A DNA stretch of 64,000 bases from Acidobacteriota bacterium (GTDB lineage Bacteria > Acidobacteriota > Blastocatellia > Pyrinomonadales > Pyrinomonadaceae). A model generated the notes under the pieces. That model searched no databases and was not told the DNA's origin. It saw only the letters and a program-made list of their open reading frames with translations. The stretch lies in assembly GCA_031409875.1 (NCBI GenBank), contig JANNYB010000133.1, forward strand, positions 4,765 to 68,764, written 5' to 3'. The position numbers and the translations under genes were made by a program. This document shows, in pieces, positions 18,304 to 43,292 of the stretch; position 1 is the first letter of the stretch; each line of letters opens with the position of its first letter.

Positions 18304-19658
18304 TGATTTCAAATTTCAAATTTCAAATTTCAAATTTTTTATGCTGTGCGGTATTTCTACTGCTTACTGCTTACTGCTTACTGCTTACTGCCAACGCGCA
18401 AAGCGACGGTTCACAGCAAAATCTCAACGGACGAAGCGGAACTTTTGCGATAACGAATGCGCGAATCGTCACGGTTTCGGGCGCGGTGATTGAATCGGGA
18501 ACGATTGTGATTAAAGACGGCAAAATCGAAGCCGTCGGCGCAAATGTGCAAATTCCTTCGGGTGCGGAACGTATTGACGGCAAAGGATTAAGCGTTTTTC
18601 CCGGAATGATTGACGCGGGAACGAATATGGGTTTGTCGGAAATTTCGCTCGGCGTTTCGGCAACGGTTGACACGACGGAAGCGGGTGAATTAAACGCCAA
18701 CGCCAAGGCAATCACCGCAATTCATCCGCACAGCGCACATATCAACGTAACGCGCGTCAACGGCATTACGACGGTGATGAGTATGCCGACTGGCGGCATC
18801 GTTTCGGGGCAATCGGCGATTATTAATTTGATCGGTTCGACGCAAAGCGAAATGGCGATTGCGCCGACATTCGGACTCGTTATAAATTTTCCGCGCGTTT
18901 CGACTTTTGCAGGTTTCGGACAGCCGCAGATTGATTTTAACGAAGCTGTAAAACGCCGCGATTTGCGAATGGACGATCTCAAAAAACTTTTCAAATCGGC
19001 GGAAAATTACTCGAAAATGTTAGAAGGTTACGCGAAAGATAAAACTTTGCCTGCGCCTGCGACGGATTTGAAATTGGAAGCAATGATTCCGTATATTCGC
19101 GGCGAAAAACCTGTAATTTTCACTGCCGAACGTGAACGCGACATTCGTGGCGTAGTTAAATTTGTTGAAGAAACGAAGGTTAAAGGAATTATTTTTGGCG
19201 GTCAAGACGCTTGGAAAGTTGCCGACGGTTTGAAGAAAAATAATATTTCGGTTATTTATACAAACATTTATAATCTGCCCGTGCAAAACGATGACGATTA
19301 TGATTATCTGTTCAACGCGCCCGCGAAAATGGCAGCCGCCGGAATAACATTTTGCATTTCAACAGGCGACAGCGGACCCGAAGTGCGCGATTTGCCGTAT
19401 CAGGCAGGTTTGGCTTCGGCTTACGGTTTGTCAAAAGACGACGCGCTGAAATCGGTTACGCTTTATCCGGCGCAAATTCTCGGCATTGCCGATAAAATGG
19501 GTTCGCTCGAAGCGGGAAAAATCGCCAATGTCGTAGTCGCGGACGGCGATATTTTGCAACCGCGCACGAACATCAAATATCTGTTCATCAACGGACGAAT
19601 GATGCCGTTGACGAGCCGACACACGGAACTTTTTGAGCAGTTTAAGGACAGAAAATAG
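18303..19658 (+). CDS. secreted amidohydrolase-superfamily paralog with degenerate metal site
   Basis: 451 aa. IVIKDGKIEAVG..RIDGKGLSVFPGMIDAGTNMGLSE has no HxH. The start overlaps the stop of the previous gene (TAATGA). Confidence 0.8.
   Translation: MISNFKFQISNFLCCAVFLLLTAYCLLLTANAQSDGSQQNLNGRSGTFAITNARIVTVSGAVIESGTIVIKDGKIEAVGANVQIPSGAERIDGKGLSVFPGMIDAGTNMGLSEISLGVSATVDTTEAGELNANAKAITAIHPHSAHINVTRVNGITTVMSMPTGGIVSGQSAIINLIGSTQSEMAIAPTFGLVINFPRVSTFAGFGQPQIDFNEAVKRRDLRMDDLKKLFKSAENYSKMLEGYAKDKTLPAPATDLKLEAMIPYIRGEKPVIFTAERERDIRGVVKFVEETKVKGIIFGGQDAWKVADGLKKNNISVIYTNIYNLPVQNDDDYDYLFNAPAKMAAAGITFCISTGDSGPEVRDLPYQAGLASAYGLSKDDALKSVTLYPAQILGIADKMGSLEAGKIANVVVADGDILQPRTNIKYLFINGRMMPLTSRHTELFEQFKDRK
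18305..18391. repeat. two heptamer arrays (ATTTCAA x4, TGCTTAC x4-5) inside the 5' end of CDS 18303-19658
   Basis: GATTTCAAATTTCAAATTTCAAATTTCAAATTT and CTACTGCTTACTGCTTACTGCTTACTGCTTACTGCC. Together they encode MISNFKFQISNF..LLLTAYCLLLTANA. Confidence 0.9.
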
Positions 19659-19796
19659 TTTTGAGTCCACGCTTTAGCGTGCAACCGCCAGCGAAGCGAA
19701 GCGGTTTTGGCGTTGATTAAGATTCAAGTTTATTTACGCAAAGCAACCGTTTCGCTTCGCTGACGGTTGCGGCACGCTGAAGCGTGGACTCAAAAC
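19658..19796. repeat. 139-bp nested palindrome of the GAGTCC family between convergent genes
   Basis: GTTTTGAGTCCACGCTTTAGCGTGCAACCGCCAGCGAAGCGAAGCGGTT .. AACCGTTTCGCTTCGCTGACGGTTGCGGCACGCTGAAGCGTGGACTCAAAAC. The TAG stop codons of both flanking genes abut its ends. Confidence 0.9.
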
Positions 19797-21286
19797 TATT
19801 GAGCAAATGAATTATAATATTCGACAGGCGCGAGTTCATCCGTTAAGATTTGCGAATCGAAGTTTAATTCTTTGTCATAAATGTTAGAAAATAAAGGTTT
19901 AAGTTCCGTGTCGTTTGATGAAAGCGGCGCGGAATTTTTTTCTTTTACGGCGATGATTATGAGGTTTTGAACTTCGTCGTCCGGTTTTGACGAATCAACT
20001 TTGAAAAGCAAAACACGCGGGAAGATTTTGCGGTAAGTGGCGAGTTCGGCTTGCACGAATTTACTTGAATTTCCTGTGATTGCGCCGCCGACATTGAAAA
20101 TTACAACGCCATCGTCTTTCAAAGTGTGATTGATTTTTTGCACGGCTTCGATGGTCGTTAGTTGAAACGGAACGCTGAATAATGAGCCGAAAGCGTCCAT
20201 TAAAACCGCATCGTATTTGTTCGATTCAGCATTATTTAAGAAAATTCTTCCGTCTTCGTGAAAGATTTTAAGACGCGGATTTTCTTCGAGTCGAAAATAC
20301 TTTTTGGCGATGTCGGTCATTTGCGCGTCAATTTCGACAACATCAATCTGCTTTTCAGGATACTTTTTCAAGTAATCTTTCGGAAACGAATAACCCGCGC
20401 CGCCAATCAATAAAGTGTTTTGAAAATCAGGTTTGAAATGTCGAATCAAGTGATAAAACTTGGCGTATTCGGAAGCTAATTCGTCGGAATCGAGAAACAT
20501 TTTCGATTGATAAAAGTTCGGATCAATCGAAAGTGCGCGGATTTGTCTGCCGGTTTTTGCATCGGTCGCGTTGAAAACCTGAACGCGGCTGTATTCGGTG
20601 TCAATGTCGTGCAAATCGAGTGTTTTGCTCAGAAAATAAGATTTCGCTTCGTTCGTCAAAACGCCGAAACCGAAGAGAATCGGAATCATCAAACTCACAC
20701 GCGAAAGCGCAAACGGCGCAATCAGAAGCGAAAGCAAAATCAGGCTTGCGCCGACAATATAAAGCGTCCGCACACTTCCGACAAACGGAATCAGAAAAAA
20801 TCCGGCAAGAAAAGTTCCCAAAATGCTCCCAACAGTCGAAAGCGCGTAAAGTCTGCCGACAATTTTGCCCGAATCGGAAAGCGAATTCATCTTTAATTTC
20901 ACCGCGTAAGGCGTTACGAATCCGAGCAAAACACTGGCAGGCGCGAACAAAATCAACGCGGCGATAACAGATTTTATTTCTAAGCCGACGTAAAATTTGC
21001 CGATTATCGAAAGAATTAAATCGTGCAATAAAATCGTCAAAGAAACTAATCCGCCCGCGAGAAAAAGCACGAAAGCTAAAATTTTTATCTCAGGTTTGCG
21101 GTCAGCCCATTTTCCGCCAAGCCAATAACCAAGACTCAAAGCCGCAAGAATCACGCCAATCAGCGAAGTCCAAACGTAAGTTGACGCGCCGATGTAAGGC
21201 GCAAGCAGACGCGAACCGACGATTTCGTAAATCATTACGAGTGCGCCGCTGGTGAAGACAGTTGTTTCAAGAATGTATTTTTTCAT
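19796..21286 (-). CDS. fused polytopic membrane domain / spermidine-synthase-like methyltransferase-fold protein
   Basis: 496 aa. ~7 TM segments, then LLIGGAGYSFPKDY, VVEIDAQM, HEDGRIFL, YDAVLMDAF. Confidence 0.8.
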   Translation of the reverse strand: MKKYILETTVFTSGALVMIYEIVGSRLLAPYIGASTYVWTSLIGVILAALSLGYWLGGKWADRKPEIKILAFVLFLAGGLVSLTILLHDLILSIIGKFYVGLEIKSVIAALILFAPASVLLGFVTPYAVKLKMNSLSDSGKIVGRLYALSTVGSILGTFLAGFFLIPFVGSVRTLYIVGASLILLSLLIAPFALSRVSLMIPILFGFGVLTNEAKSYFLSKTLDLHDIDTEYSRVQVFNATDAKTGRQIRALSIDPNFYQSKMFLDSDELASEYAKFYHLIRHFKPDFQNTLLIGGAGYSFPKDYLKKYPEKQIDVVEIDAQMTDIAKKYFRLEENPRLKIFHEDGRIFLNNAESNKYDAVLMDAFGSLFSVPFQLTTIEAVQKINHTLKDDGVVIFNVGGAITGNSSKFVQAELATYRKIFPRVLLFKVDSSKPDDEVQNLIIIAVKEKNSAPLSSNDTELKPLFSNIYDKELNFDSQILTDELAPVEYYNSFAQ

Positions 21287-25159: not shown

Positions 25160-25402
25160 AAAACTTTAACGAAAGTAGAAAATAAAAAGGAAAATCCGGT
25201 ATTTTGAGCCGGTCTAAATAAAAAATTGTAACATTATTTCCCGAACATATTACTTAATGCACAAAGTATTGCATTTTAAAGGTAAAAAATGCCTGTTGCA
25301 AGCAAGTAGCGAATTTAATTTTTAAATTAGTCCGAAAAACATCTGGTTTGATGCACGGAAAGCGCGAAAAAGTTGTTTGTAAAGCAGTGCTTATTTTAGT
25401 GT

Positions 25403-25563
25403 TTCGGGCGCGTTCAGAGTTCAAACTTCAGTTTGTAACCGCCAGCGAAGCGAAGCGGTTTTCGCTCAACGGGAGAGATTTACTCGAAATATTGTAACGC
25501 CAATCCGCGACCGCGTAGTGCAACGCGGAGCAAACTAAAGTTTGAACTCTGAACGCGCCCGAA
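25403..25563. repeat. 161-bp nested palindrome
   Basis: TTCGGGCGCGTTCAGAGTTCAAACTTCAGTTTG .. CAAACTAAAGTTTGAACTCTGAACGCGCCCGAA. The inner module CCGCCAGCGAAGCGAAGCGGTT is identical to that of the 19658-19796 element. Confidence 0.85.
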
Positions 25564-25700
25564 AAAAAATATTGACTTTATTGAGCGATAGGAATAAGGT
25601 TTTAATATCCGAAAATTTCGTCAAACAGAATTAACTTTGAATGTTTTTTAACAGCAATCATTTTTAGTCCAGAAACAAAAATCACTTTAACCATATTTTA

Positions 25701-25712: not shown

Positions 25713-25808
25713 ATGCCTTTAATTAACCCTAAGTTGTTTGCACTTTTAATTGGAATTGATAAATATTCGCAAGTTAGGCATTTCGTGTATGTTGAGGTTT
25801 ACAAATGA
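25713..25808 (+). pseudogene. detached 5' end of the caspase gene, now a 31-codon leader ORF
   Basis: Below the ORF-track size cutoff. MPLINPKLFALLIGIDKYS is the canonical first strand of peptidase C14 domains. It is followed by unrelated QVRHFVYVEVYK and a stop that overlaps (ATGA) the start of the next ORF. Confidence 0.7.
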
Positions 25809-26611
25809 AGAAACCTGATAAATTCCAAGCCGGAGTCCTTTGCACAGTTGGCGCAGCGATATTCTGCTTGGCATTAGCTAAAGAACCGATTTCCAAATTT
25901 ATTATACTTCCAGATTTCATATATAGTATCGCGTTCGTGATTGGAACTTTAATGATACTTTGGGGATTTTTGGGTTGGTTTGCATCGGTTTTAACACCAC
26001 CAGCAAACAGGGTTCTTGAAATTGTTCATAAGAAACTTAATGCTAAATATATATGCGTTTTTGCCACGCAAGACGATTTACCTCAACTTTATGATTTATA
26101 TTCAGAGTTTTTCGATGATGAAGTGCCTTCACTAAACCTTATGAAGTCTTGGGTGCGTCAGAATCGTAAGGCGTTCGCTCTAGTTTATAGAGTTGATAAT
26201 TCCTCAATAAAGCAGAAGGAACAGGTTCTTGCTGGCTCATTCAAAGTGCTTCCAATTACTCAGGAGGCAGTTCAGGGTTTGGAATCTGAACAACTTAGCG
26301 GTTCAACATTTGAGGCTAAACATATCGCTCGTAATCAAAAGGACGCTGCTGCTTACTATGTAGGCGATGTTGTAGCAACGAGACGCTCTGCACGCGCTTT
26401 CATTCTCGCATCCTTAAACTTTGCTTGTGAAAACGCGCTCCGAAAAGGACTTCCAATTTACGCAAGACCATTAACCGAAGATGGAAAGCGCGTAATGACA
26501 AAGTATAATTTTGTTCAAGCGAACGATGGTAAGTCGCCGCCTCAAATTGGAAAAATATGTAAGCTGATGGTAGGTGCTGTTAAATTTTTAAAGGGAAGAT
26601 CTCAAAATTAA
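25805..26611 (+). CDS. membrane-anchored (2 TM) protein with GNAT-acetyltransferase-like C-terminal domain (tentative)
   Basis: 268 aa. TM helices VLCTVGAAIFCLALA and IAFVIGTLMILWGFLGWFASVL. The alpha/beta region YICVFATQDDLPQLYDLY..KAFALVYRV..VLAGSFKVLPI..YYVGDVVATRRSARA..LPIYARPLTEDGKRVMTKYNF has a GNAT-like pattern. Codon style differs from the flanks. Confidence 0.6.
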   Translation: MKKPDKFQAGVLCTVGAAIFCLALAKEPISKFIILPDFIYSIAFVIGTLMILWGFLGWFASVLTPPANRVLEIVHKKLNAKYICVFATQDDLPQLYDLYSEFFDDEVPSLNLMKSWVRQNRKAFALVYRVDNSSIKQKEQVLAGSFKVLPITQEAVQGLESEQLSGSTFEAKHIARNQKDAAAYYVGDVVATRRSARAFILASLNFACENALRKGLPIYARPLTEDGKRVMTKYNFVQANDGKSPPQIGKICKLMVGAVKFLKGRSQN

Positions 26612-26688
26612 GATTAAACTCGTAGTGGAAAAACGCCTAACAATTCAATGGACGTGAGGGCGAAACAGCGACTTTCTTAAAACGGTCT

Positions 26689-29600
26689 TTGGTTTTCCTT
26701 ACGCTGCGTGTATTCGTTTTCGCCCACGTCATCTCAACCGTTCGTTTGCCCGACGGAAGTTATTATCCGAATCTCGGCGGTTGCGTGCGCGATGTTAATT
26801 TGGTTGAACAGATGCTGAAAAATCGTCTGAATCTGCCGGACGCACAAATTATCAAATTGCTTTCCGAAAATAATAATCCGACCGTAACCGCCGAACGTAT
26901 TCCGAATTACGAAAACCTCGTCAAAGCGTTCAAAGAAATAACCGATTCAGCCGAAGCGGACGACCAAATTTACATTCATTATTCGGGACACGGCGGACGT
27001 TCGACGACGATTTTCCCTGAAATCAAAGGTCAAAACGGTTTGGACGAATCGCTCGTGCCGTGCGACATCGGCGCAAACGGCGTTTGTTATTTCCGCGATT
27101 TGGAAATAAGTTTCTTGCTCAAAAAAATGTCGGACAAAGGCATTTTGGTAACTTTGGTGTTCGACAGTTGTCATTCGGGCGGCGCAACTCGCGGCGAAGG
27201 CGGCGCGTTTGCCAGAGGAATTGACAGTATTGATACGCGAAAACAGACGCAAGAAAGTTTGGTTTTCAAAAATATTGATGTCAAAGCCGCTTTTGCAGAA
27301 TTTCCGCCGTCGGCGACTCGAAATTTGAATTCCGCGCAAGGTTGGCGTTTGCCGATTCCGCCGAATCTGGTTTTTATTTCGGGTTGCCGTGCGAATGAAT
27401 TGGCGAATGAATTCGCGTTTGACGGTTTGCAGAGAAACGGCGCATTGACTTATTGGCTACTCGATTCCCTGCGGCAAGCGGACGAAAATTTCACTTATAA
27501 AATGCTCTACAATCGCGTTTCCGCGAAAGTTCACGCCAAATTTATCAATCAAACGCCGGTCATTGAAGGCGACCGCGACCGCATTGTTTTTGGCGGCTTG
27601 AAATTATCTTCGGGCGAAAGTATCAATGTTACCAAAGTTGATTTGCCGAACAATCGAATTACGCTCAACACGGGACTTTTTCAAGGCGTTTCCAAAGGCG
27701 CACAATTTGCCGTGTTTTCAGCGGAAACCGTTGATTTTACTGATGTTTCAAAGCGTCTTGTCATCGTTGAAATCGAAAACGTCGGCACGACCGAATCAAC
27801 CGCTTTGATAGTTTCGGGCGACGCGAAAGATAAAATTCAGGAAGGTTCGCAAGCGGTTCTGCTCGGTGTCGGGATTCGTCTGCGCGGGCGGATTCGGCTT
27901 GTTTTTCAAGCGAATGGGTTTGACGAAGATTTGAAAAAATTAGGCAATTTTATTGCTCGAAACGAAGGCGATTTAGAAGCGCGAGATAAATGGATTCGGC
28001 TTTGCAACGACGGCGAAGAAGCCGATTTTCAAGTTGCCGTAAATAAATTCGGCGAGTTTGAAATCTGGGACGCAGAAGGCAGAGTTTTGCCGAATTTGCG
28101 TCCGGCTTTGCGCGTTGAAAAAGCAGAATCTTTAGCAAAAATGCAGGAAAGATTGGTGCAGTTGACGAAATATCGAAACGTCCGTTTGATTGATAATACC
28201 GATCCGGCTTCGCCTTTGGCTAACAAACTTAAAGCCGAATTGATGATTGTCAAAACAGATAAAAAGGAGGTGGAAACAACTCATTTGTTGCCCGTTCCGC
28301 TTCGTCCGCTTTCGGTTGGCGAACGCGCTTGTTTGCGCGTTACGAATCTTTCAAACACGCCTTTGAACTTTGTGATTATGGATTTAGCACCTGATTGGGG
28401 AATTTCGCAAATTCATCCTGACCCGAACGCGCAAGACTTCGATTTTTTGGACAGCGGCGCGACTTTCGACTTTAAAATGGATGCTTTTTTGCCTTCGGAT
28501 GATTACCAATCGGGAACTGATATTTTAAAAGTTTTCGCCACGGTTGAAGGCACAAGTTTTCGTTGGTTGCAAATGTCGCCGCTCGATCAACCGCCGATGC
28601 CGATTCAGCGAAGCGGTGAAATTAATGATGATTTGGAACAACTTTTGACAGGTTTTAACGCCGAAACTATGCGGAATATGAAACCCGTAACCAATTTAAA
28701 TTCGCCGAAAGGCAGAAGTTGGACGACTGCCGAAGTTGCCGTAACCGTGCGCCGTCCGTCAATCGCGCACGTTACCGATCCGGCACTTTCGCTGCTTCAA
28801 TCGGCGGTTGAAGAATTGGTTTTGAGCAAAAATGCCGAAACGAAATCACGCAGTGTCAACGGCAAAGAATATAAATATTTGCGCCCCGAATTGGACAATC
28901 AAATAATCAAAGAAGTCGCTCAATATTGCATTGCGCTGAATGAAAATCGAGTTACTGAAACCGAATTAATAACAAAAGATTCAACGGCTTACAGCGATGC
29001 TCAGGAACGCGGCGCATTCGATACGATAAATTATTGTGCAGGTTTGACAGCAGGTTTGGCGAAAGAATGGTTTAAAGCAAAACTTTGGGGCGATGATGCC
29101 GAATATAACCGAATCAAAGAATCTTTGACCGTAAAATTCGGCGGTTGCGATCCGAATTTTAAGGATACGGCAATTCTTTATTTGAAATATCTCAAAGAAG
29201 GCGGACACACGCCTTATCGAACTGCGAATAATCCGACGGATTTTGTGGTTGACGGGCGTTTGGCGGAAGATGCGACAATCGGAATCGTCGCGGATTGGGC
29301 AACGGGCGAACCGGCGGCGTTGGAAGTTTTGCGCCAGATGAAAAATCTTAACCCGAATGTTGCTATACATTTAGGCGATATTTATTATGCCGGAACGGAA
29401 CTCGAAGTCGAAAATTATTTTTATCAACCTTGGAAAAATATTCTTCGACTCGAAACTTCGGAAATCATTTCGTTCGCTTTGCCCGGAAATCACGATCTTT
29501 ATGCCGGCGGCAAACCTTTTTATGATTTGCTGGACAAATTGCAGATTTTGAATAAGTTTGACGGCAAAATGGCGAGTTATTTTTGTCTGCGAAACAAATA

Positions 29601-30138
29601 TTGGCAATTTATCGGATTGGACACGGCTCTGCACGACAGATTGGGCGCAGGTCCGACTTATCTCGAACCTCAGGAACTCGAATGGTTTAAAGACAAAATC
29701 GAAAATGCCGACGGCAGAAAAACCGTTTTGCTTTCGCATCATCAATTATTTTCGGCAAACGACCAATGGAAGGATGAAAAAGACGATGGGAATAATAAGG
29801 AATATAACCCGAAACTTTTTGATAAACTCGCTCCGATACTGGAAAAAGTTGATTTATGGCTTTGGGGACACGAACACGATTTGGTTATTTTTGATGAATT
29901 TCTAAAACTAAAACGCGGACGCTGTATCGGCGGAAGTGCTTTTCCCGTAGGCAATTACGAAATGCCGACAACGGTCAAAAATCCGAATGTTACGTTTAAC
30001 AAAGAAGTCGCACTCAGCAAAGGAAGCGTTTTTTATCAGCATTGCTACACGATGATTAAACTCAATGGCGAAAACGCCGTCGTTTCCTATTACGAAGACC
30101 GCGACGGCGGCAGATTGCTTTTTGAGGAAACGATTTAA
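26689..30138 (+). CDS. caspase-like peptidase C14 / metallophosphoesterase fusion protein (5' end displaced; start uncertain)
   Basis: C14 dyad IYIHYSGHG (His codon 26989-26991) and VFDSCHSGG (Cys codon 27169-27171). C-terminal purple-acid-phosphatase-like motifs VADWATG, GDIYYAG, LPGNHD, LLSHHQ, WGHEHD. The frame is open only from 26641, with TTG 26689 as the only start candidate before the domain. Confidence 0.85.
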   Translation: MVFLTLRVFVFAHVISTVRLPDGSYYPNLGGCVRDVNLVEQMLKNRLNLPDAQIIKLLSENNNPTVTAERIPNYENLVKAFKEITDSAEADDQIYIHYSGHGGRSTTIFPEIKGQNGLDESLVPCDIGANGVCYFRDLEISFLLKKMSDKGILVTLVFDSCHSGGATRGEGGAFARGIDSIDTRKQTQESLVFKNIDVKAAFAEFPPSATRNLNSAQGWRLPIPPNLVFISGCRANELANEFAFDGLQRNGALTYWLLDSLRQADENFTYKMLYNRVSAKVHAKFINQTPVIEGDRDRIVFGGLKLSSGESINVTKVDLPNNRITLNTGLFQGVSKGAQFAVFSAETVDFTDVSKRLVIVEIENVGTTESTALIVSGDAKDKIQEGSQAVLLGVGIRLRGRIRLVFQANGFDEDLKKLGNFIARNEGDLEARDKWIRLCNDGEEADFQVAVNKFGEFEIWDAEGRVLPNLRPALRVEKAESLAKMQERLVQLTKYRNVRLIDNTDPASPLANKLKAELMIVKTDKKEVETTHLLPVPLRPLSVGERACLRVTNLSNTPLNFVIMDLAPDWGISQIHPDPNAQDFDFLDSGATFDFKMDAFLPSDDYQSGTDILKVFATVEGTSFRWLQMSPLDQPPMPIQRSGEINDDLEQLLTGFNAETMRNMKPVTNLNSPKGRSWTTAEVAVTVRRPSIAHVTDPALSLLQSAVEELVLSKNAETKSRSVNGKEYKYLRPELDNQIIKEVAQYCIALNENRVTETELITKDSTAYSDAQERGAFDTINYCAGLTAGLAKEWFKAKLWGDDAEYNRIKESLTVKFGGCDPNFKDTAILYLKYLKEGGHTPYRTANNPTDFVVDGRLAEDATIGIVADWATGEPAALEVLRQMKNLNPNVAIHLGDIYYAGTELEVENYFYQPWKNILRLETSEIISFALPGNHDLYAGGKPFYDLLDKLQILNKFDGKMASYFCLRNKYWQFIGLDTALHDRLGAGPTYLEPQELEWFKDKIENADGRKTVLLSHHQLFSANDQWKDEKDDGNNKEYNPKLFDKLAPILEKVDLWLWGHEHDLVIFDEFLKLKRGRCIGGSAFPVGNYEMPTTVKNPNVTFNKEVALSKGSVFYQHCYTMIKLNGENAVVSYYEDRDGGRLLFEETI

Positions 30139-30177
30139 AAAGTCGTTGCAACTTTGCTTTAAAATCGGAGGTCGCTA

Positions 30178-32328
30178 ATGCCTGATTATGAAGATTTCAA
30201 AATAGTTATCAACAGCACCGATAATCTAACTTTCACGGTTGATGTCATCAAACCTTGCGGCGGAAATGTCGGCGACGCTCACGGCGTTTTTAATTTTGAC
30301 GAAATCAAATCAATTTCCGACGCTTTCGATAATTTGGCTGATGCGCCGCCGCTTGCCGAACGCAATTTCAAACCTGTTGCCAACAATAATAAAGAACTGA
30401 CTCTGAACTATCACAAACCGCTTTCAAACCTCAAAGCCGAAGAATTAGGCGCGAATCTTTCGGACGTTTTGTTCAAAGATGACGTGCGCGAGATTTTGGG
30501 CAGATGTAAAGAATATTGTGAAGCAAATCAAGCGATTTTAAGAATCAGATTAGATTTATCGCGCGTTCCGAAACTCGCGGAATTGCCTTGGGAATATCTT
30601 CGCAACACCGAAGATGATAATTTTTTGTGTTTGGACGAAGACACGACTTTGGTTCGATATTTACAAACCGCCGATGCTGTTCGTCCGCTCAAAGCCGTGT
30701 TGCCTTTGCGGATTTTGGTGATGGCTTCCACGCCGCAAAATCTGCCCGCGTTGGCGAAAAATGACGAGATAAACAAAATCAAAGTCGCTCTAGCCGAAAT
30801 TTTTAACGATGCAATTGAAATCGTCGTTTTGGAAAAGCCGACGGTTAAAGCTCTGCAAACAGCTCTGAAACAAGCAAAAGACAAGGAAATGCCGTTTCAT
30901 ATTTTTCATTTTATCGGTCACGGCGCGTTCGATGCGGAAAAAGACAGAGGCGTTTTGCTTTTTGAAGACGACGCAAAAAACAGCGTTGCCGTTGACCACG
31001 AAGATTTGGGCAGATGGCTTCAGCCTTATCGAAATAATTTGCGTCTTGTCGTGCTGAATGCTTGCGAAGGCGCGAAGGTTGCGGCAGACGATACTTATTC
31101 GAGCGTTGCTGCAAGATTGATGCAAACTGCTGAAATACCTGCGGTTATCGCAATGCAATACAGCATTAAGGACACAGCGGCGATTGAATTTTCAAAATCG
31201 TTTTACGAAGAAATCTCGAAAGGAAATTATCTCGAAGGCGCAATTCAAACGGCGCGAAAAGCTATAAACGATTTGAATTTACCAACCGAAGAGTGGGCAA
31301 CTCCTGTTTTTTATCTGCGGGCTGAAAGCGGACATTTGTTCGACATCAGAATTCCGACACCGCCTGAAAATTTGGTCAGATTTGGACATTTTACGACTTT
31401 AAAAACTGTGCTTCCGACTTGTAATCTTGTAATTTTCATCGGTTTGGATGTTAATGTTTCAAACCGACCGTATTTTAGTTCGTGGCAACCGAATCGAGGT
31501 TTGCCGAACGCCGCCGAACTCTGTTCTTACATCAGCCAAAGCCAAAGTATCAATCCGCCGATTACTTCTTTAGCTTCTTTGGCGAAAAAACTTCAAGTAA
31601 CAAGTCAGCTTAATCCCGACGCAATGGCTTTGCTGTTTTCGCCGCCGCCGCAGCCGATTAAACTTTATCGGATTTGGGCAGAAATTGCGCGTCAAATTAC
31701 CGATAATTTGCCGGAAACGATTGTTGATCCGCTTCATTGTTCGTTGCTTTTTGTAACGACGACTTACGATTTTTCGTTGGAAAAATCTTTTTCTGCGGCG
31801 GGAATTACAAAATACAACACGATTTGCTATAACCGTTCGACAAACGGAAATTGGATTTTTTCGCATAATTATTTTGAAAACGGAAGTTTGATTTTCAAAA
31901 ATGATTTAATCGCGCCCGAATATACGCCGAACGAATACAAAAAATTGGGCAATAAATATCCGATTATTTTAAAGTTGCCGGGCGAAATTACTTCGGATTT
32001 GAATTATGCGATTACCGAAGATGACTTTTTTGCTTTTGCCAATAAAAGTTTGTCCGAACTTTTGCCCGCCGATTTGCTCGGACAAATAAACACCAGCCGA
32101 CATCTTTATTTGGGCTACGATTTGCAAAATTGGACGCTTCGTTTGCTTTTGAACAGAATTTGCGAAAATCAAAGTCCGCCGAAGAAAAAAACTTCTTGCG
32201 CCGTAATTTTTGATGAAAACGATGATCCGAATGTGGATTTTTGGAAGGAACAAAATGTTTTGCTCGCGCCGGCGAATTTGGAAGATTATGTTGCCGGTTT
32301 GGAAAAATTTGTCTTGAATCAAATGTAA
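30178..32328 (+). CDS. CHAT protease domain / SIR2_2-like domain fusion protein
   Basis: RBS GGAGG. LRIRLDL..LAELPWEYLRN, FHFIGHG (His 30919-30921), VVLNACEG (Cys 31063-31065). C-terminal VIFIGLDVN, VTTTYDFSLEKSF, ILKLPGE..AITEDDFFAF and LYLGYDLQNWTLRLLL follow the SIR2_2 motif order, but the canonical Asn and His positions are substituted. Confidence 0.85.
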   Translation: MPDYEDFKIVINSTDNLTFTVDVIKPCGGNVGDAHGVFNFDEIKSISDAFDNLADAPPLAERNFKPVANNNKELTLNYHKPLSNLKAEELGANLSDVLFKDDVREILGRCKEYCEANQAILRIRLDLSRVPKLAELPWEYLRNTEDDNFLCLDEDTTLVRYLQTADAVRPLKAVLPLRILVMASTPQNLPALAKNDEINKIKVALAEIFNDAIEIVVLEKPTVKALQTALKQAKDKEMPFHIFHFIGHGAFDAEKDRGVLLFEDDAKNSVAVDHEDLGRWLQPYRNNLRLVVLNACEGAKVAADDTYSSVAARLMQTAEIPAVIAMQYSIKDTAAIEFSKSFYEEISKGNYLEGAIQTARKAINDLNLPTEEWATPVFYLRAESGHLFDIRIPTPPENLVRFGHFTTLKTVLPTCNLVIFIGLDVNVSNRPYFSSWQPNRGLPNAAELCSYISQSQSINPPITSLASLAKKLQVTSQLNPDAMALLFSPPPQPIKLYRIWAEIARQITDNLPETIVDPLHCSLLFVTTTYDFSLEKSFSAAGITKYNTICYNRSTNGNWIFSHNYFENGSLIFKNDLIAPEYTPNEYKKLGNKYPIILKLPGEITSDLNYAITEDDFFAFANKSLSELLPADLLGQINTSRHLYLGYDLQNWTLRLLLNRICENQSPPKKKTSCAVIFDENDDPNVDFWKEQNVLLAPANLEDYVAGLEKFVLNQM

Positions 32329-32343
32329 AAAGTAGAAAAAAAG

Positions 32344-34602
32344 ATGAAAAAAACTGAAAAACCAAACGAAAATTTTTCTCCGTATGTCGGTTTAATTCCG
32401 TTTTCGGAAAAAGATGCCGCGTATTTTTTCGGGCGCGATTCGGACGGCGAAATTATAGCAACAAATCTTCGCGCCACGGCTTTGACGGTTTTTTACGGCG
32501 CAAGCGGTGTCGGGAAAAGTTCGCTTTTGAATGCGCGGGTCATTCCTTACTTGAAAAAAATCGCCGTTTCTTCAAATTTACCCGACGAACCGCCCGAATT
32601 TATTTTGGTTGTTTTGCGCGAATGGGCGAATAATCCTTTGGAAAGTTTGCGTTTGCGACTCAAGGAAGCGGTTGCGGAAACCGTCAAAAAAGTAAAAATT
32701 CCGAAGCCGAATCTGCAATCGCCCGAAGCACAGATAGCTCAAAAAACAATTGAATATCTCGATGAAAAAGATGTCGAACAAACGGCAAATGTTTTGAAAA
32801 ATAACCACGATATTTGCGATTTGCTGAAAAACTGGGCTGATTTGACGGGAACGATTTTTTTAATAATCTTTGACCAATTTGAAGACATTTTTTTGCATCC
32901 CGAATTTCTCGCGGGTGAAAATTCATTTGGCGATGAATTTGCTAAAACATTGAATTGCAAAGATTTACCCGCGAATTTTATGATTTCGATGCGCGACGAT
33001 GCGTTGGCGAAAATGGATATTTTCAAAGGCAAAGTGCCGAATATGATGAAAAATATTCTGCGCCTTTTGCATCTTGACCGCGCCGCGACCGAAATCGCCA
33101 TTCGCGCACCGCTTATCGAATACAACAAAGAATTCGGCACGAATTTTACGATTGAAAAGGAACTTGTCGAAACGCTTTTGAACGATCTTCAAGTTGATAA
33201 AATTAAGTTTGAAACGCAAGGTCAAGCAGATTGCGCTCCTGAAAAAACGAGCATTGATAACGCTTATCGCGTCGAAACTCCTTATTTGCAGTTAGTTATG
33301 AAGCGGCTTTGGGAAAATCCGCTGACGCAAGAATCTCAAAAACTCCAACTTTCAACGCTTATCGGCACGGAAACCGATCAACTCGGCGGCGTGCAAAACA
33401 TCGTCGAAACGCACCTCGACAAAGTGATGGAACAATTCAGCGAAGACGAAAAACATCTTGCCGCTAAATTTATTCATTTCACCGTTACGCGCGGCGGCAC
33501 GAAAATTCCTTCCGATGTGAATGATTTGGCTGATTGGGCGGAATTGACCGACGACAAAAAATCGAACATCGAAAAAATCCGAAACATTCTTGACAAACTT
33601 TGCGAAGGCGAAAATCGAATCTTCAAAAAAGTAAATAACCGCAAAGACTCGAAAAATCCGTATTACGAAGTTTCCCACGACGCACTCGGACCGGCAATCA
33701 TAAGTTGGCGCAAACGCCAAAACGAAAGCCGTCTGAAAACCGAAAATGACCGCAAAATGCAAGCCGAAGTAGAAAAAGCGGTAAAAGAGAAAGAGGAACA
33801 AGAACAAAAATTACAAGAAGAACAAAGTTCTCGCTTAATGCAAGAACATCTTCTTGTTTTACAAAAACGCTATAATTTTCTCGGCAAAGTTATTTGGGGA
33901 GCGAGCATTGTTTTTCTAATTGGCGCAGTAGGAATTTATTATTATTGGTGGGTTTGGTCATACAAAGATTATATTAAAAAAGCTGAAGATGACCAAAAAA
34001 GGTATGCAAATTTATACGATTCACAGTTAAATGAATATAAATCGTTAATCAATATCTTGTTTAACCTTCAATCAAACGAACCGTCAAAAATAACTTCGGC
34101 TCTCGATAATTTGCAAAAAGAAACTGAGAATAATGATTTGCCCGACGAATACAAAGATGAAATAACGAAAGTTTTGAATAAGATTGAAAATAAAACTGAG
34201 GATGAAAAAGAAAAAGAAAAAATTAAAACGATTATCAAAAATCCGCAGTTGCAAACTAAGGCTCAAAAATCAGTTGAAAATGTTTTAATATTTGTTCAAT
34301 ACGCAAATGATAATCAAGAAACTGCCGTCAATCAATGGCGAATTTTTCTAAAGGGAAGCGGATATATTGCGCCACCATTAGATAAGGTGGGAGATAAAGC
34401 ACCGCCACAAAATGAACTCCGTTATTTTCGTAAAAGAGATGAGAAACAAGCTACAAGTATTATTCAATTATTGGGTTCAAAAGGGTTAAAAGTGGATGCG
34501 AAGTTAATTAGCGGTTATGAAGATTCGCCATTAATCAAAGAAAATCAATTTGAATTATGGTTCAATGAAAATATTCCGAATGCTCCCGTAACGGCAAAAT
34601 AA
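32344..34602 (+). CDS. STAND/NLR-like P-loop NTPase with coiled coil, one TM helix and an unassigned C-terminal domain
   Basis: PYVGLIPFSEKDAAYFFGRD..VFYGASGVGKSSLLNA (Lys codon 32515-32517), Walker B IFLIIFDQFED. Coiled coil ~aa 455-500, TM VIWGASIVFLIGAVGIYYYWWVW, K/E/N-rich segment. The C-terminal ~110 aa (IFVQYANDNQE..LRYFRKRDEKQATSIIQLL..) are unassigned. Confidence 0.85.
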   Translation: MKKTEKPNENFSPYVGLIPFSEKDAAYFFGRDSDGEIIATNLRATALTVFYGASGVGKSSLLNARVIPYLKKIAVSSNLPDEPPEFILVVLREWANNPLESLRLRLKEAVAETVKKVKIPKPNLQSPEAQIAQKTIEYLDEKDVEQTANVLKNNHDICDLLKNWADLTGTIFLIIFDQFEDIFLHPEFLAGENSFGDEFAKTLNCKDLPANFMISMRDDALAKMDIFKGKVPNMMKNILRLLHLDRAATEIAIRAPLIEYNKEFGTNFTIEKELVETLLNDLQVDKIKFETQGQADCAPEKTSIDNAYRVETPYLQLVMKRLWENPLTQESQKLQLSTLIGTETDQLGGVQNIVETHLDKVMEQFSEDEKHLAAKFIHFTVTRGGTKIPSDVNDLADWAELTDDKKSNIEKIRNILDKLCEGENRIFKKVNNRKDSKNPYYEVSHDALGPAIISWRKRQNESRLKTENDRKMQAEVEKAVKEKEEQEQKLQEEQSSRLMQEHLLVLQKRYNFLGKVIWGASIVFLIGAVGIYYYWWVWSYKDYIKKAEDDQKRYANLYDSQLNEYKSLINILFNLQSNEPSKITSALDNLQKETENNDLPDEYKDEITKVLNKIENKTEDEKEKEKIKTIIKNPQLQTKAQKSVENVLIFVQYANDNQETAVNQWRIFLKGSGYIAPPLDKVGDKAPPQNELRYFRKRDEKQATSIIQLLGSKGLKVDAKLISGYEDSPLIKENQFELWFNENIPNAPVTAK

Positions 34603-34607
34603 TTTAC

Positions 34608-35075
34608 ATAAATCACCTTACGCGATTTTTGATTTTAGCCCGATTATGGTCTTTGAAAAATAAAAGTCGTAAATAATAAAAAAAGCGAATGGCTGGGAGT
34701 GCGGGCTTCTCAGCCTGCTACGCCGCGTTTTTCAGCGGTGTAAAAGCGTTCGATTAAAAATCAACTTGAATTTACGCAAAGTCTTTTGAGCATTTTTCAA
34801 ACGCTCAGCAGGCTGGGAAGCCCGCGCTCCCAGCGAAAAACATTCTTTTTTTTACGGTTTTTATTTTTCAAAGAACATTAACATCCTTTTCTTCATCTGA
34901 GAGCTTTTGTCTGTATTTTGGCGGCTCAAGCCAAGAAAAAGGACGTTAAAACGCCCTTTGAAAAATCGTTCTTCGCTTGACCGCGCCATAAATGGACGCG
35001 GCTAAGTGCCGCGAAACGCGGAAAGCCTCGTGAACGAGGCTAAATTCACAAAATCGTGTAAGGTGAATTAAATAA
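34608..35075. repeat. nest of palindromic elements (MITE within MITE)
   Basis: Outer arms AATCACCTTACGCGATTTTTGATTTTAGCC / GGCTAAATTCACAAAATCGTGTAAGGTGAATT. Middle arms TCTTTGAAAAATAAAAGTCGTAAA / TTTACGGTTTTTATTTTTCAAAGAAC. Central element 34692-34834 has GCTGGGAGTGCGGGCTTCTCAGCCTGC / GCAGGCTGGGAAGCCCGCGCTCCCAGC arms. An extra ~160 bp containing further hairpins sits in the right arm. Confidence 0.75.
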
Positions 35076-38686: not shown

Positions 38687-39325
38687 ATGAATAAGGTAGA
38701 ATGTGAAATGCAGAAAGATTTTTACGCCAGTTTTATGAAGAATTTATTTACCAAAGCAATTTTATTTGTCGCGCTGTGCATTGTTTTTTCCGGCTGTGAA
38801 ACGGCAAAAACGGATTCGCTCAACACCGCGCCGAAGGACGATAAAACAACGAACGCGAAAAAGGACTCAAACCCGAATAATTATCCGTTTGCGCCGTCGG
38901 CTATTTTGCAGGCGGAAATCAAAATGACGGACGGCACGAGTTTTAAAATGGAAGACAAAAAAGGCAAAGTTATTCTTTTGAATTTGTGGGCGACGTGGTG
39001 CGGACCGTGTCGTTCGGAAATGCCGCATCTTGTTGAAATGCAAGAGAAATACCGCGATAAAGGTTTTGAAGTTATCGGCTTAAATCAAAGCGACGAAAGC
39101 GTTGAAGAAATTAAAGATTTTGTCGGAAAAATGAAGCTGAATTATGCTCAAGGCTATTCGGACAACAAACTCACCAACGAATTTGTCAAACTTTCGCAAA
39201 TGAACGGCATTCCGCAAAGCATCTTGATTGACCGCGAAAATCGTCTGACCGGAGTTTTCGGCGGCGGCGGTCCGAAAGTCATAAATTCGATGAAAGATAC
39301 GGTTGATAAAATTGTCAATCAATAG
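38687..39325 (+). CDS. TlpA/ResA-like thioredoxin-fold lipoprotein
   Basis: Lipobox-like FSGC and LLNLWATWCGPCRSEMPHL. The true start may be an internal ATG (MQKDF or MKNLF). Confidence 0.85.
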   Translation: MNKVECEMQKDFYASFMKNLFTKAILFVALCIVFSGCETAKTDSLNTAPKDDKTTNAKKDSNPNNYPFAPSAILQAEIKMTDGTSFKMEDKKGKVILLNLWATWCGPCRSEMPHLVEMQEKYRDKGFEVIGLNQSDESVEEIKDFVGKMKLNYAQGYSDNKLTNEFVKLSQMNGIPQSILIDRENRLTGVFGGGGPKVINSMKDTVDKIVNQ

Positions 39326-39406
39326 TTTTGAGTCCCGCCTTCAGGCGGCGTTGTCAGTTCGCCGCGGTTCGCTGGCGACCTGCCGCCTAAAGGCGGGACT
39401 CAAAAC
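39325..39406. repeat. 82-bp palindrome of the GAGTCC family
   Basis: GTTTTGAGTCCCGCCTTCAGGCGGC .. GCCGCCTAAAGGCGGGACTCAAAAC. It overlaps the stops of both convergent genes. Confidence 0.9.
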
Positions 39407-40832
39407 TTTTCGGTTCAACTAAAATCGTCTTAAAACTTGCCAAACTCACAAGCCCAAGTGCCGAGCCTTTCTGTTTATTGACGAATTTTTTTGGCGTGTA
39501 ATGCACGGCAACTTTGGGCTGTTCGCGGGCAGTGCTGTAAAACGCGGCAAATTGTGCGGCTTCGAGCAGAGTTTTCTGCGGGATTTCTGCGCGATTCGGA
39601 TTTTTAACGACAACGTGCGAACCCGGATAATCTGCCGCGTGAAGCCACAAATCGTTTGATTTTGCCACACGAAATGTCAAAAAATCATTATCTTTTGCGC
39701 CTTTTCCAACCAAAATTTCAAAACCGTCGGACGAAATAAATTTTCTCGCGCATTTGATAGTTTCGGCAGATTTAACTTTCGATTTTGCTGAAACTTTTTC
39801 CGGTTTTTCGCCGATAAATTCATCTAAAACGGATTCGTCTTTTTCCGTAATCGCCGTTTCGAGTTCGGTAATTCGTAATTCGTAATTCGTAATTTGTAAT
39901 TCAAGAGCCGCCAAACGCTTGGCAATTTCTTGTTTCGCATTTCGGGCTTTCGTATATTTTTTGAAAAACTTTTCGGCAGCGTGCGTCAATTCATCATTTT
40001 CATCAACCTCAATTTCCAGCGTCGGAATATTTTCATCAAAATAATCAACGACTAAAACTTTATTTTCAATCCGCACCGCGTCAGCCAAATTCGCCAAAAT
40101 CAAATCGCCAAACCGTTTCCACGTCTCAGCGTTACCGTGTTTCGCCAAATCCGCATTCAAATTCGCAACCTGTTTTCCGCGCTTTTTTAATTCCTGATTC
40201 AACTTGCTTCGAGCCGCATTCGCCTTAGACTTAAAGGCATTTTCCACCTCTTTTTCCAGATAAAAATTATCAAGACTCTCAGACAAACTCTCAAAATCTC
40301 CCAACGGAAAAATCTCCTCGTCTCCTTTTCTCACTTTCTCCCCTTCTCGAACCGGCGGCGCGAATTTCTGTCCAACCAACTGTCCTTCGCCCGAATTTTC
40401 GCGGCTGGCATCAATAATAAAGCCGCGTTCATCGAGCAGAAAAAGATTCGCCGAACGTCCCGTTAATTGGACGATTAAGCCGAGATTTTCCGCTTGCCCG
40501 ATTTCGCTCACGGCTGAAAAATCAAATCGCAAAATGCGTTCGTCTTTAAACTTTTCGATGTTTTCCAAAATTGCATTTGAAAGTTTTTTTCGCAGATGCA
40601 GAAGAAAAGGCGCAGGATTTTTTGATGATTTTTCCAAATCGCGCAAGCGTCTTTTGATCAAAAAAATACGCGGCGCAGAAGGTTCAAAACTGATAAAAAG
40701 ATAGCGCGAATCGTTAAGCCGAAAATCAATCGCCAACTGAAACCGCGAAAGAGGAAAAATTTTGCCGAACTTTCGCCCGCACAAAACAGACGAAAGCTCG
40801 GCACTTATGTTTTCGAGTGTTGAATTGTTCAC
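39387..40832 (-). CDS. NFACT-family ribosome quality control protein (RqcH/FbpA-like)
   Basis: C-terminal NFACT-R/DUF814 signature DGFEILVGKGAKDNDFLTFRVAKSNDLWLHAADYPGSHVVV. The N-terminal NFACT-N-like domain starts at VNNSTLENISAELSSVLCGRKFGKIF. The ORF-track start at 40967 overlaps the upstream gene and crosses a heptamer array, so GTG 40832 is proposed; the start remains uncertain. Confidence 0.8.
   Translation of the reverse strand: MNNSTLENISAELSSVLCGRKFGKIFPLSRFQLAIDFRLNDSRYLFISFEPSAPRIFLIKRRLRDLEKSSKNPAPFLLHLRKKLSNAILENIEKFKDERILRFDFSAVSEIGQAENLGLIVQLTGRSANLFLLDERGFIIDASRENSGEGQLVGQKFAPPVREGEKVRKGDEEIFPLGDFESLSESLDNFYLEKEVENAFKSKANAARSKLNQELKKRGKQVANLNADLAKHGNAETWKRFGDLILANLADAVRIENKVLVVDYFDENIPTLEIEVDENDELTHAAEKFFKKYTKARNAKQEIAKRLAALELQITNYELRITELETAITEKDESVLDEFIGEKPEKVSAKSKVKSAETIKCARKFISSDGFEILVGKGAKDNDFLTFRVAKSNDLWLHAADYPGSHVVVKNPNRAEIPQKTLLEAAQFAAFYSTAREQPKVAVHYTPKKFVNKQKGSALGLVSLASFKTILVEPKSFESRL
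39868..39903. repeat. heptamer array GTAATTC x5 inside the rqcH-like CDS
   Basis: GGTAATTCGTAATTCGTAATTCGTAATTTGTAATTC. It encodes ..LELQITNYELRITELE.. on the minus strand. Confidence 0.85.
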
Positions 40833-42159: not shown

Positions 42160-42419
42160 AGATTTTTAAAGATTGATAATACCGGATATGAATTTTTTTG
42201 AGACGGAAAATTCTTGATATGAACTAAACTGAAAAAATAATATCAGAGATTACTTTAAGTAGTCAATAGTAAATTGTGCAAACAATGAAGATTTTTGATT
42301 TATATTTATCTTCATTCGTGATTTTACCGAATTCTTCGAGTATTTTTTTTTACAAAAATGTAAAATTTAGCTTGCAAATTTTTTTATTTGAGATTATTAT
42401 CGCTTCGCTTAGCAAAATT

Positions 42420-42623
42420 TTAATTTTTAAAACATTTTATGTGTCCGTATTGCATTAATGGACTAAAAAAGTTTTGACTTTTACAATTTTCAAGGCTCTT
42501 TGACATATTTAAGTTCCGGCTTTTATCAGAACAATAGCAATAAACATTTTCGGTCAAACAATCATCATTTATGAATCTACAACGACCGATTCCAAGTTGC
42601 GAAGATAAATTGAAATTCTGCAC
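42420..42623 (-). CDS. possible small Cys-rich ORF (very tentative)
   Basis: 67 aa with 7 Cys (CRFINDDCLTENVYCYCSDKS..) in an AT-rich region that is otherwise noncoding. No clear RBS seen. Confidence 0.2.
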   Translation of the reverse strand: MQNFNLSSQLGIGRCRFINDDCLTENVYCYCSDKSRNLNMSKSLENCKSQNFFSPLMQYGHIKCFKN

Positions 42624-43251: not shown

Positions 43252-43292
43252 TATTGAATCTTATAAAATAATCTAAATAATTTACCAAACAT

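Follow-up and report, generated by a model that had tools for sequence, protein, structure and literature searches.

A putative conflict cassette of soil Acidobacteriota combines a membrane-anchored nSTAND1 ATPase with two caspase-fold protease fusions

We analysed a 64,000-nucleotide (nt) stretch of an Acidobacteriota bacterium (Blastocatellia; Pyrinomonadaceae; GenBank assembly GCA_031409875.1, contig JANNYB010000133.1, positions 4,765 to 68,764; hereafter, the window) and describe a tight operon of three genes, termed g1, g2, and g3. They encode a metacaspase-like peptidase C14 fused to a metallophosphoesterase (MPE), a CHAT protease fused to a SIR2-like domain, and a membrane-anchored ATPase of the nSTAND1 clade of STAND proteins (multidomain ATPases acting in signal transduction). 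As far as comparative sequence data reach, this three-gene cassette is a real conserved unit of soil Acidobacteria, and its probable role is that of a cell-suicide or immunity system not yet named. Our preferred reading, to which we give about even credence, is that the locus represents an acidobacterial conflict system serving regulated cell death or immunity, in which a membrane STAND switch would control a two-protease cascade. In the window genome itself the cascade is probably broken, with g1 split by an insertion and an accessory hydrolase gene absent.

A first-pass annotation made from the nucleotide sequence alone had proposed three co-directional open reading frames (ORFs) with gaps of 39 nt (g1 to g2) and 15 nt (g2 to g3), and the coordinates and strands proved exact (Table 1). 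Shine-Dalgarno-like motifs lie upstream of the ATG of g1 (AAGGAG) and g2 (GGAGG). The proposed domains were all recovered by profile searches, in which Pfam gathering (curated) scores were used as the cutoff for domain calls and each of these domains exceeded it: Peptidase_C14 (E = 2.5e-17, 63.8 bits) and Metallophos (1.7e-16, 61.7 bits) in g1; CHAT (3e-21, 76.6 bits) and SIR2_2 (1.2e-7, 32.3 bits against a cutoff of 24.5) in g2; and nSTAND1 (PF20703; 9.6e-40, 137.8 bits against a cutoff of 27.1, profile positions 1 to 376 of 379) in g3. The motifs and residue numbers given at the outset were likewise correct. The catalytic dyads of g1 (H101/C161, ORF numbering) and g2 (H248/C296) are invariant in orthologues, and the Walker A (GASGVGKSS, with K58) and Walker B (LIIFDQFED, with DQFED at residue 177) motifs of g3 are conserved in its homologues.

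More than 10 independent contigs of Acidobacteriota show the order g1-g2-g3, with ATPase identity down to 29%. Around g3 homologues that are 69, 47, 45, 37, and 29% identical to the window protein, genes for C14-Metallophos, CHAT-SIR2_2, and nSTAND1 proteins are tightly spaced in a constant order. The flanks vary among these loci; only the 69% relative shares synteny with the window, on its downstream side. Full-length g3 homologues (NTPase, transmembrane [TM] helix, and C-terminal domain) are numerous, and those with a named organism are Acidobacteriota, mainly Pyrinomonadaceae/Blastocatellia. When one genome per GTDB species was scanned with the g2 alignment, no more than nine species, each belonging to Acidobacteriota, proved to have the complete CHAT-SIR2-like architecture; an nSTAND1 gene follows directly downstream in all nine, and g1 is present in five, one of the remaining four loci being truncated by a contig end. 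Every related locus examined contains either the triad or the g2-g3 pair, in line with the co-occurrence implied by the first-pass annotation. Among the 120 listed, the C14-MPE fusion itself accounts for 85 or more full-length clusters at 90% identity. In four loci (L001, L002, L006, and L008), a gene for an approximately 297-amino-acid (aa) alpha/beta-hydrolase (PGAP1/DUF676-like) stands between g1 and g2; this gene is absent in the window and present in L001, its closest, syntenic relative. The hydrolases of L001, L006, and L008 may correspond to caspase-activated hydrolase zymogens described in 2025.

Chance adjacency, or a decayed remnant without joint function in which the domain matches are merely generic, would be in keeping with the disruption of g1 in the window and with the loss of the hydrolase gene relative to the closest relative. 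Such an explanation is scarcely credible. Gene order and tight spacing persist over these contigs at 29 to 82% identity within different flanks, the C14, CHAT, MPE, and Walker residues are invariant, and g2 and g3 are intact ORFs here. The conserved neighbourhood thus largely refutes chance adjacency, and by computation the triad is well supported as a unit.

The g1 protein is the most conserved of the three, with 58 to 64% identity in loci where g3 shows 29 to 47%. A confident model built with AlphaFold2 (AF2) from 107 sequences (predicted local distance difference test [pLDDT] score, 84.6; predicted TM-score, 0.84) and structure searches identified a type II metacaspase-like protease, which matches Yca1 by sequence (6e-15) and AtMC4/MC9 by fold (1.6e-9). 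The middle of the protein, described as unassignable in the first-pass annotation, could be assigned by AF2, Foldseek, and module searches to beta-sandwich domains (FlgT, 1e-3; PapD-like, 4e-3; with a weak Pfam FlgT_C match) and a helical bundle. An exhaustive profile-free search further revealed that g1 consists of two widespread stand-alone modules fused together. The first is an approximately 700-aa protein comprising C14 and an approximately 380-aa extension, with hundreds of representatives at 35 to 45% identity; the second, of approximately 450 aa, comprises a helical region and Metallophos, and four examples (P0153, P0255, P0276, and P0279) match query residues 676 to 1135. All of the metal-ligand sites of the MPE (VADWATG, GDIYYAG, GNHD, SHHQ, and GHEHD) are present and invariant in orthologues. 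Its initial description as purple acid phosphatase (PAP)-like stood for the motif pattern (motif I with D and without H; motif II GDxxY) and failed for the fold, since the nearest solved structure is the diesterase GpdQ (3d03; Foldseek E = 4e-9), with CpdA weakly matched. A PDB sequence search with the C-terminal half of g1 returned nothing useful, and a profile or fold search was needed.

Some C14-MPE proteins carry an additional N-terminal GH19 (Glyco_hydro_19) domain (P0350, P0355, P0358, P0364, P0366, P0367, and the L092 protein at 3214-7092). The GH19 Pfam family comprises chitinases or lysozyme-like muramidases. A GH19-C14-MPE protein would be a cytoplasmic-looking muramidase joined to a caspase, which would tie the system to peptidoglycan.

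The CHAT domain of g2 matches a solved CHAT-domain structure (8tl0) at 1.9e-13; a PDB sequence search with the single g2 sequence gave nothing useful. In alignments of the SIR2-like domain with solved SIR2 NADases, VTTTYD of g2 falls on TTNYD, and ILKLPGE falls on IKFHGT/YKLHGD. The replacement of the catalytic Asn and His, raised as a caveat in the first-pass annotation, was thereby confirmed, and it is general: His has become Pro in all six orthologues, none of which retains Asn (five have Thr, and L008 has Gly). The replaced positions are the residues mutated in deposited inactive SIR2 NADases. The glycine-rich NAD loop (GAGxS) is degenerate, reading F(I/L)GLD(V/I)N with one Gly kept in g2 orthologues, and nSTAND1-fused SIR2-like copies keep GAG or GPG at this place. 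The non-catalytic motifs of the fold (FIGLD, TTTYD, KLPGE, and AITEDDF) are retained. Because the catalytic residues are lost in all orthologues and the other motifs are kept, the domain is best described as a conserved pseudo-enzyme. Its nearest relatives are the C-terminal domains of approximately 890-aa nSTAND1 proteins (E down to 1e-22), and P0104 and P0072, the two examined at alignment level, have likewise lost the catalytic His to another residue. This Rosetta-stone fusion to an nSTAND1 C-terminus suggests that the SIR2-like domain works physically with the nSTAND1 ATPase. Its original designation as an effector was not borne out, given the replacement of both catalytic residues and the position of its closest relatives; judging from these alignments, it probably serves for docking or for binding a ligand and not as an NADase.

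Ligand binding is central to one alternative, in which the dead SIR2-like domain would sense NAD+, an ADP-ribose derivative, or a nucleotide and pass this signal to CHAT in the manner of SAVED, the MPE would degrade the signal or nucleotides, and the membrane ATPase would act upstream as a regulator or scaffold. The SIR2 fold has been kept with its non-catalytic motifs invariant, the same kind of domain occupies the sensor position of nSTAND1 proteins, and the best PADLOC match of g2 is SAVED_CHAT, covering the CHAT part only. In addition, the nearest structure to the MPE is a phosphodiesterase, CpdA being a weak match, and for conflict systems built around NTPases, calcineurin-like phosphodiesterases have been predicted to degrade signalling nucleotides (PMC7159879). 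However, a signal-generating enzyme, be it a nucleotide cyclase, a TIR, or another, is encoded neither in the operon nor in its conserved neighbours, the NAD loop is degenerate, and the PAP-type motifs of the MPE are atypical for cyclic-nucleotide phosphodiesterases. We regard small-molecule gating as distinctly improbable.

The third protein, g3, begins its NTPase domain at residue 13 and therefore has no N-terminal effector or adaptor. The TPR, WD40, or LRR sensor arrays usual in STAND receptors are absent from its C-terminus; paralogous nSTAND1 proteins have WD40, TPR, or SIR2_2 after the NTPase, where g3 has a TM helix and a LytR_C-like domain. The single TM helix, the K/E/N-rich linker, and the C-terminal domain noted at first pass are all present, and the last is a conserved domain of approximately 105 aa. 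The best PDB match of its AF2 model (pLDDT 88) is the LytR_C domain of Rv0431 (probability 0.91); Pfam LytR_C is a second, independent source, and together they point weakly to a LytR_C-like fold. Homologues of g3 add peptidoglycan-binding domains of the SH3_3 or SPOR type. Since g3 has no signal peptide and its N-terminal domain is ATP dependent, its C-terminus would be periplasmic. Between the window and the syntenic locus L001, flanking genes are 86 to 92% identical and the g3 NTPase is 87% identical, compared with 39% for the TM/linker region and 58% for the putative periplasmic domain. This divergence is compatible with a fast-evolving sensor, with low complexity contributing.

These components can be combined into a candidate mechanism. 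The g3 protein would span the inner membrane, its nSTAND1 NTPase facing the cytoplasm and its LytR_C-like domain the periplasm. A trigger, probably a perturbation of the envelope or peptidoglycan, would cause the NTPase to oligomerise; the oligomer would recruit g2 through the dead SIR2-like domain, and proximity would activate CHAT. CHAT would then cleave g1, activating the metacaspase and/or releasing the phosphoesterase at the seam between the two ancestral modules; the predicted cleavage sites are the p20-p10 linker, with its conserved R-G sites, and/or the region of the seam at about aa 690. In the four-gene versions, the alpha/beta-hydrolase zymogen would be an extra protease substrate. 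The outcome would be growth arrest or death. Individual steps have experimental precedents, although in unrelated systems: SAVED-CHAT cleaves and activates PCaspase (bioRxiv 10.1101/2023.06.23.546230), a caspase-like protease activates an alpha/beta-hydrolase zymogen via double cleavage (PMC12642450), and MPE, transmembrane STANDs, and peptidoglycan-binding sensors are named among the partners of protease-effector modules (PMC12642450). The first-pass interpretation as an NTP-dependent sensor with protease-effector fusion partners fits this described STAND and protease-effector logic.

In a more specific and somewhat unlikely version of this mechanism, g3 would be an "outside-in" NOD-like receptor (NLR) that reads peptidoglycan damage or occupancy arising from phage lysins, injection machinery, or an antagonist's wall hydrolases. 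One TM helix would convert this state into oligomerisation, and the SIR2 fossil, as a docking or ligand-gating adaptor, would couple the ATPase to the CHAT-metacaspase-phosphoesterase cascade. We know of no experimental demonstration of transmembrane signalling by a STAND/NLR protein or of a pseudo-SIR2 adaptor. A related but larger cluster, the P0383 locus (JGI 3300047160), encodes Metallophos, CHAT, PLD-like, C14-MPE (36% identical to g1), and CHAT proteins and a giant 2938-aa NTPase with AAA_22, PG_binding_1, C14, and DUF7379 domains. This cluster suggests a wider family of peptidoglycan-linked NTPase/multi-caspase systems.

Several observations weigh against the conflict-system reading as formulated above. 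A shared adaptor (EAD/Death-like) was not detected by hhalign for the g2 N-terminus, the g3 C-terminus, or the SIR2-like domain against g1/g3 (probability <1%), so that the physical coupling of g3 to g1 and g2 is one that we purely infer. The CHAT-then-metacaspase order is borrowed, by analogy, from one unrelated system. The LytR_C scores are weak, with Pfam LytR_C found in 4 of 19 g3-family members (best E = 0.0017) and the Foldseek match to Rv0431 at E = 0.07 and a TM-score of 0.43, and the fast evolution of the linker may reflect low complexity rather than selection. With PAP-like motifs on a diesterase GpdQ fold, the MPE does not permit a substrate assignment. The first gene is also not obligatory: the most distant g2-g3 pairs (L018 and L019) have no g1 within 10 kb, and in L017 a C14 protein with the middle region lacks the phosphoesterase and lies on the opposite strand, suggesting that g2-g3 is the core and that g1 was added in the clade of the window. 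Finally, known defence systems are missing from all of the flanks that were examined. In favour of the cascade, stand-alone C14-700 proteins adjoin CHAT proteins in a KSB1 genome and in Rhodothermales, which shows that such a pair of proteases also exists outside this operon.

The composition of the flanks bears on another explanation, namely, an envelope-surveillance or developmental protease system rather than an antiphage one. Here, the periplasmic LytR_C/SH3/SPOR-type domain would report the status of the wall, and the ATPase would govern limited proteolysis by CHAT and the metacaspase in wall remodelling, division, stress-induced dormancy, or programmed death within the population. Roles of this kind have been suggested for HetF, a CHAT protein of cyanobacteria, and for orthocaspases. 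A location in a defence island, which the first-pass annotation had named as a point to check, was not supported, as neither the window locus nor the related loci lie within recognisable defence islands: Pfam searches of 10 neighbouring window genes returned housekeeping families, and PADLOC searches of 26 flanking proteins from seven related loci returned only HEAT-ARM, caspase, and CHAT matches. Such flanks favour an envelope role, as do the synteny of the locus with L001, which suggests vertical inheritance, the best NCBIfam match of g2 (the cell-division protein HetF, far below the cutoff), and the recurrence of cell-wall-binding domains on the ATPase and of GH19 on some g1 versions. By contrast, a phosphoesterase, an alpha/beta-hydrolase, and two caspase-fold proteases under a STAND protein are typical conflict effectors, the locus varies between genomes and is patchily distributed, and turnover of an accessory gene together with repeated pseudogenisation would be unusual for a housekeeping regulator. 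On this balance, the envelope role seems unlikely.

The 5' disruption of g1 recognised in the first-pass annotation is real and is due to a 967-bp insert, beyond which the frame is restored as in intact orthologues (Table 1). The upstream fragment encodes the first beta-strand of the caspase fold. The insertion point is G|TT within the target CAAG|TTCGT, and the g1 frame resumes at 26741 with the TT of codon 21, yielding S-Q-V-R-L-P-D-G. Intact orthologues have the N-terminus M..N.RPNLFALLIGIDRYSQV(R/P)LPDGSYYPHLGGC. The 3' part of the insert can form an imperfect attC-like hairpin, in which R' (GTTAGGC) is composed of the last G of the insert and its first six bases upon circularisation. The circularised insert has one perfectly complementary R''/R' pair, 112 nt apart, with cores matching RYYYAAC and GTTRRRY; the hairpin DNA folds have energies of -21.4 and -22.5 kcal/mol (z scores of -4.3 and -3.7). 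Counting both strands, the entire window holds only four candidate R''/R' pairs, a second attC-like site of the insert's type is not present in it, and a pair at 43462-43608, in AT-rich coding sequence, was rejected as a chance match. Given the G|TT insertion, the 3' attC-like site, and a single ORF, the insert is probably an integron-type gene cassette at a secondary site.

The insert ORF had no match in Pfam, NCBIfam, or PADLOC. Its 17 homologues belong to Acidobacteriota where the organism is named and otherwise to soil metagenome contigs; they share the motifs YYVGDVVA and YARPLT and have a basic C-terminal tail that the window ORF lacks. Elsewhere, these homologues are ordinary chromosomal genes, one of which directly follows a type I restriction-modification operon (HsdM/S/R and a YgjP-like protein), with a 4-nt overlap into its final gene. 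The possibility that this ORF is a habitual integron cassette was rejected, no attC-like sites having been found in L009, L010, or 13 metagenome loci whose sequence extends beyond the gene.

The caspase fold, complete in orthologues, lacks its first beta-strand in the window g1, and with this strand and the native translation start lost, g1 is most likely a pseudogene here. Disruptions affect 3 of about 12 loci: g1 in the window, and g2, which is split in L002/L011 and in L092. The split genes point to frequent inactivation or, alternatively, to assembly errors. Repeated inactivation is expected of costly suicide systems.

The cassette was compared with systems of related design. PADLOC v2 returned domain-level matches only (caspase, SAVED_CHAT, BovA, and a weak ThsA match) and no system, NCBIfam has no model specific to the cassette, and no description of the triad architecture was found in the literature searched; the first-pass view that the locus matches no named system accordingly stands. 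Close relatives in concept are the conflict systems centred on nSTAND1 that Kaur, Burroughs, Iyer, and Aravind predicted (eLife 2020, PMC7159879; eLife 2021, PMC8195603), which share the NTPase clade, caspase-fold peptidase and calcineurin-like phosphoesterase partners, and a predicted role in cell death or immunity. Those systems use EAD (effector-associated domain), Death-like, or EACC1 coupling modules and cytoplasmic WD40, TPR, or FGE sensors, whereas the present one has no detectable shared adaptor, no domain N-terminal to the NTPase, and a TM helix with a putatively periplasmic LytR_C-like C-terminus. The SAVED-CHAT/PCaspase pair of the Haliangium type III-B hybrid of CRISPR and CBASS (cyclic-oligonucleotide-based antiphage signalling system; Steens et al., bioRxiv 10.1101/2023.06.23.546230) also co-encodes two caspase-fold proteases, with CHAT fused to a non-catalytic regulator and the C14-type protein as the likely substrate. 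Here, however, the regulator is a pseudo-SIR2 rather than SAVED, a STAND ATPase takes the place of cyclic triadenylate (cA3) from Cas10, and the C14 protein is extended by beta-sandwich domains and a phosphoesterase; the order of the cascade is proposed for the cassette by analogy. The modules described by Evans et al. in 2025 (PMC12642450), compared by logic and gene position, combine a sensor with a caspase-like protease that has a latent hydrolase beside it or fused to it. The cassette resembles these protease-effector modules in its four-gene versions, where the alpha/beta-hydrolase gene directly follows the caspase gene, and it differs in having an effector covalently fused to the protease (C14-MPE) and a second protease.

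Other systems share single features. In Avs and bNACHT, a P-loop STAND switch likewise controls a death effector, but Avs is a single polypeptide whose N-terminus is the effector and whose large C-terminal part is a cytoplasmic sensor binding phage proteins, while in the cassette separate genes encode the effectors and the sensor would be extracytoplasmic; none of the Avs/bNACHT PADLOC models matches g3, the only matches being mad8 and mad3 at E = 0.002 to 0.09 over the P-loop. The SIR2 NADases (ThsA, DSR1/2, SIR2-HerA, and KomC) share the fold family, as seen in weak matches to solved defence SIR2 proteins; with Asn and His replaced and the GAG loop degenerate, canonical NADase activity is not expected of g2. 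Borvo, a single-gene system (BovA), shares only the CHAT domain (PADLOC BovA, 8e-5) and has no STAND partner, SIR2-like domain, or second protease.

The claim of an undescribed system is upheld for the exact architecture and not for the kind. Pairings of nSTAND1 with caspase/CHAT partners, TM STANDs, peptidoglycan-binding sensors, and MPE and alpha/beta-hydrolase as protease-associated effectors all figure in published surveys (PMC7159879; PMC8195603; PMC12642450), and the novelty therefore falls below that of an undescribed kind. What appears undescribed is the defining combination: effectors separate from the ATPase, an extracytoplasmic LytR_C-like domain in the sensor position, a pseudo-SIR2 on the CHAT protein, a metacaspase-beta-sandwich-MPE fusion, and restriction to Acidobacteriota. 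As a whole, the interpretation offered by the first-pass annotation is partly supported.

Further features of the window were recorded. An Rfam scan of the locus (E up to 1) detected no RNA family, and promoter and terminator scans gave counts near the shuffled expectation. Plasmid carriage was rejected, as tblastn of g3 yielded only distant NTPase-domain matches of <27% identity. A 34-nt inverted repeat upstream of g1 (25402-25564) was rejected as a system-specific element, since it is one of 22 long hairpins of this kind in the window. These repeats have arms of 22 to 81 nt, several of the largest having spacers of about 90 to 98 nt; those placed against the gene map are intergenic, members lie on either side of the operon, and arm sequences are common to those at 1823 and 50194 and to those at 19654 and 39321. 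They appear to be a genome-wide family of hairpins resembling repetitive extragenic palindromes (REP) or miniature inverted-repeat transposable elements (MITE). A low-GC stretch (0.33 versus about 0.43 elsewhere) may be a horizontally acquired island.

Table 1. Coordinates of the operon, the insert, other window features, and related loci
Feature	Position	Strand	Description
g1 5' fragment	25713-25773	+	Start, codons 1-20 (MPLINPKLFALLIGIDKYSQ), and first base of codon 21; ribosome-binding site AAGGAG upstream
Insert	25774-26740	+	967 bp; starts TTAGGC, ends ...CTCAACCG
Insert ORF	25805-26611	+	268 aa; two N-terminal hydrophobic helices, conserved C-terminal domain
attC-like imperfect hairpin	26634-26740	+	R'' GCCTAAC at 26634-26640; R' GTTAGGC spanning insert ends
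g1 ORF	26689-30138	+	C14 and Metallophos
g1 remainder	26741-30138	+	C14, beta-sandwich domains, helical bundle, MPE
g1 beta-rich middle	27619-28890	+	FlgT-like, PapD/MSP-like Ig-type; up to ~aa 690 corresponds to ~700-aa caspase family
g1 helical bundle and MPE	28900-30135	+	Matches stand-alone ~450-aa proteins
g2	30178-32328	+	CHAT and SIR2_2; N-terminal ~88 aa; CHAT aa 89-390; SIR2_2-like aa ~400-716
g3	32344-34602	+	nSTAND1 (aa 13-488), coiled coil, TM helix, K/E/N-rich linker, small C-terminal domain
g3 TM helix	33880-33957		aa ~513-538
g3 LytR_C-like domain	34276-34578		aa ~645-745
Inverted repeats (examples)	1823-2028, 14347-14565, 19654-19800, 25402-25564, 34646-34878, 39321-39410, 47210-47358, 50194-50391
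Low-GC stretch	42001-46000		HATPase_c protein at 43293-44771 and two ORFs after it
L001			g1 C-terminal part (contig end), alpha/beta-hydrolase, g2, g3; closest, syntenic relative of the window
L004, L005, L007			g1-g2-g3 directly; intact operon at L004 4351-12370
L006, L008			g1-hydrolase-g2-g3; intact four-gene operon at L006 3477-12328
L013-L016			Further loci supporting neighbourhood conservation
L091, L092			C14-MPE, CHAT-SIR2_2, TM-anchored nSTAND1; g1 only 48% identical
Alpha/beta-hydrolase gene	L001 1252-2145; L006 6974-7864; L008 6780-7688
Split CHAT-SIR2-like gene	L002 2085-4218; L092 7276-9476		Two ORFs; metagenomic loci
Insert-ORF homologues	L010 8001-8885; L009 8001-8861

Innate immunity in bacteria and in eukaryotes shares a common theme, that of STAND/NLR switches driving death effectors that are activated by proteases. 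To our knowledge, the characterised bacterial examples sense cytoplasmic phage proteins. In the family described here, the only plausible sensor would lie outside the membrane, in a cell-wall-associated domain, and the operon pairs two caspase-fold proteases with a SIR2 domain that has been conserved after catalytic loss. The cassette-like insertion in the window illustrates one concrete route by which a costly system may be switched off. If an intact orthologue is functional, it would give access to the trans-envelope activation of an NLR-like ATPase, to a bacterial initiator/executioner caspase cascade outside CRISPR, and to the adaptor role of pseudo-enzymes. The family also adds Acidobacteriota, a phylum that is dominant in soil yet has been little studied, to the catalogue of such systems.

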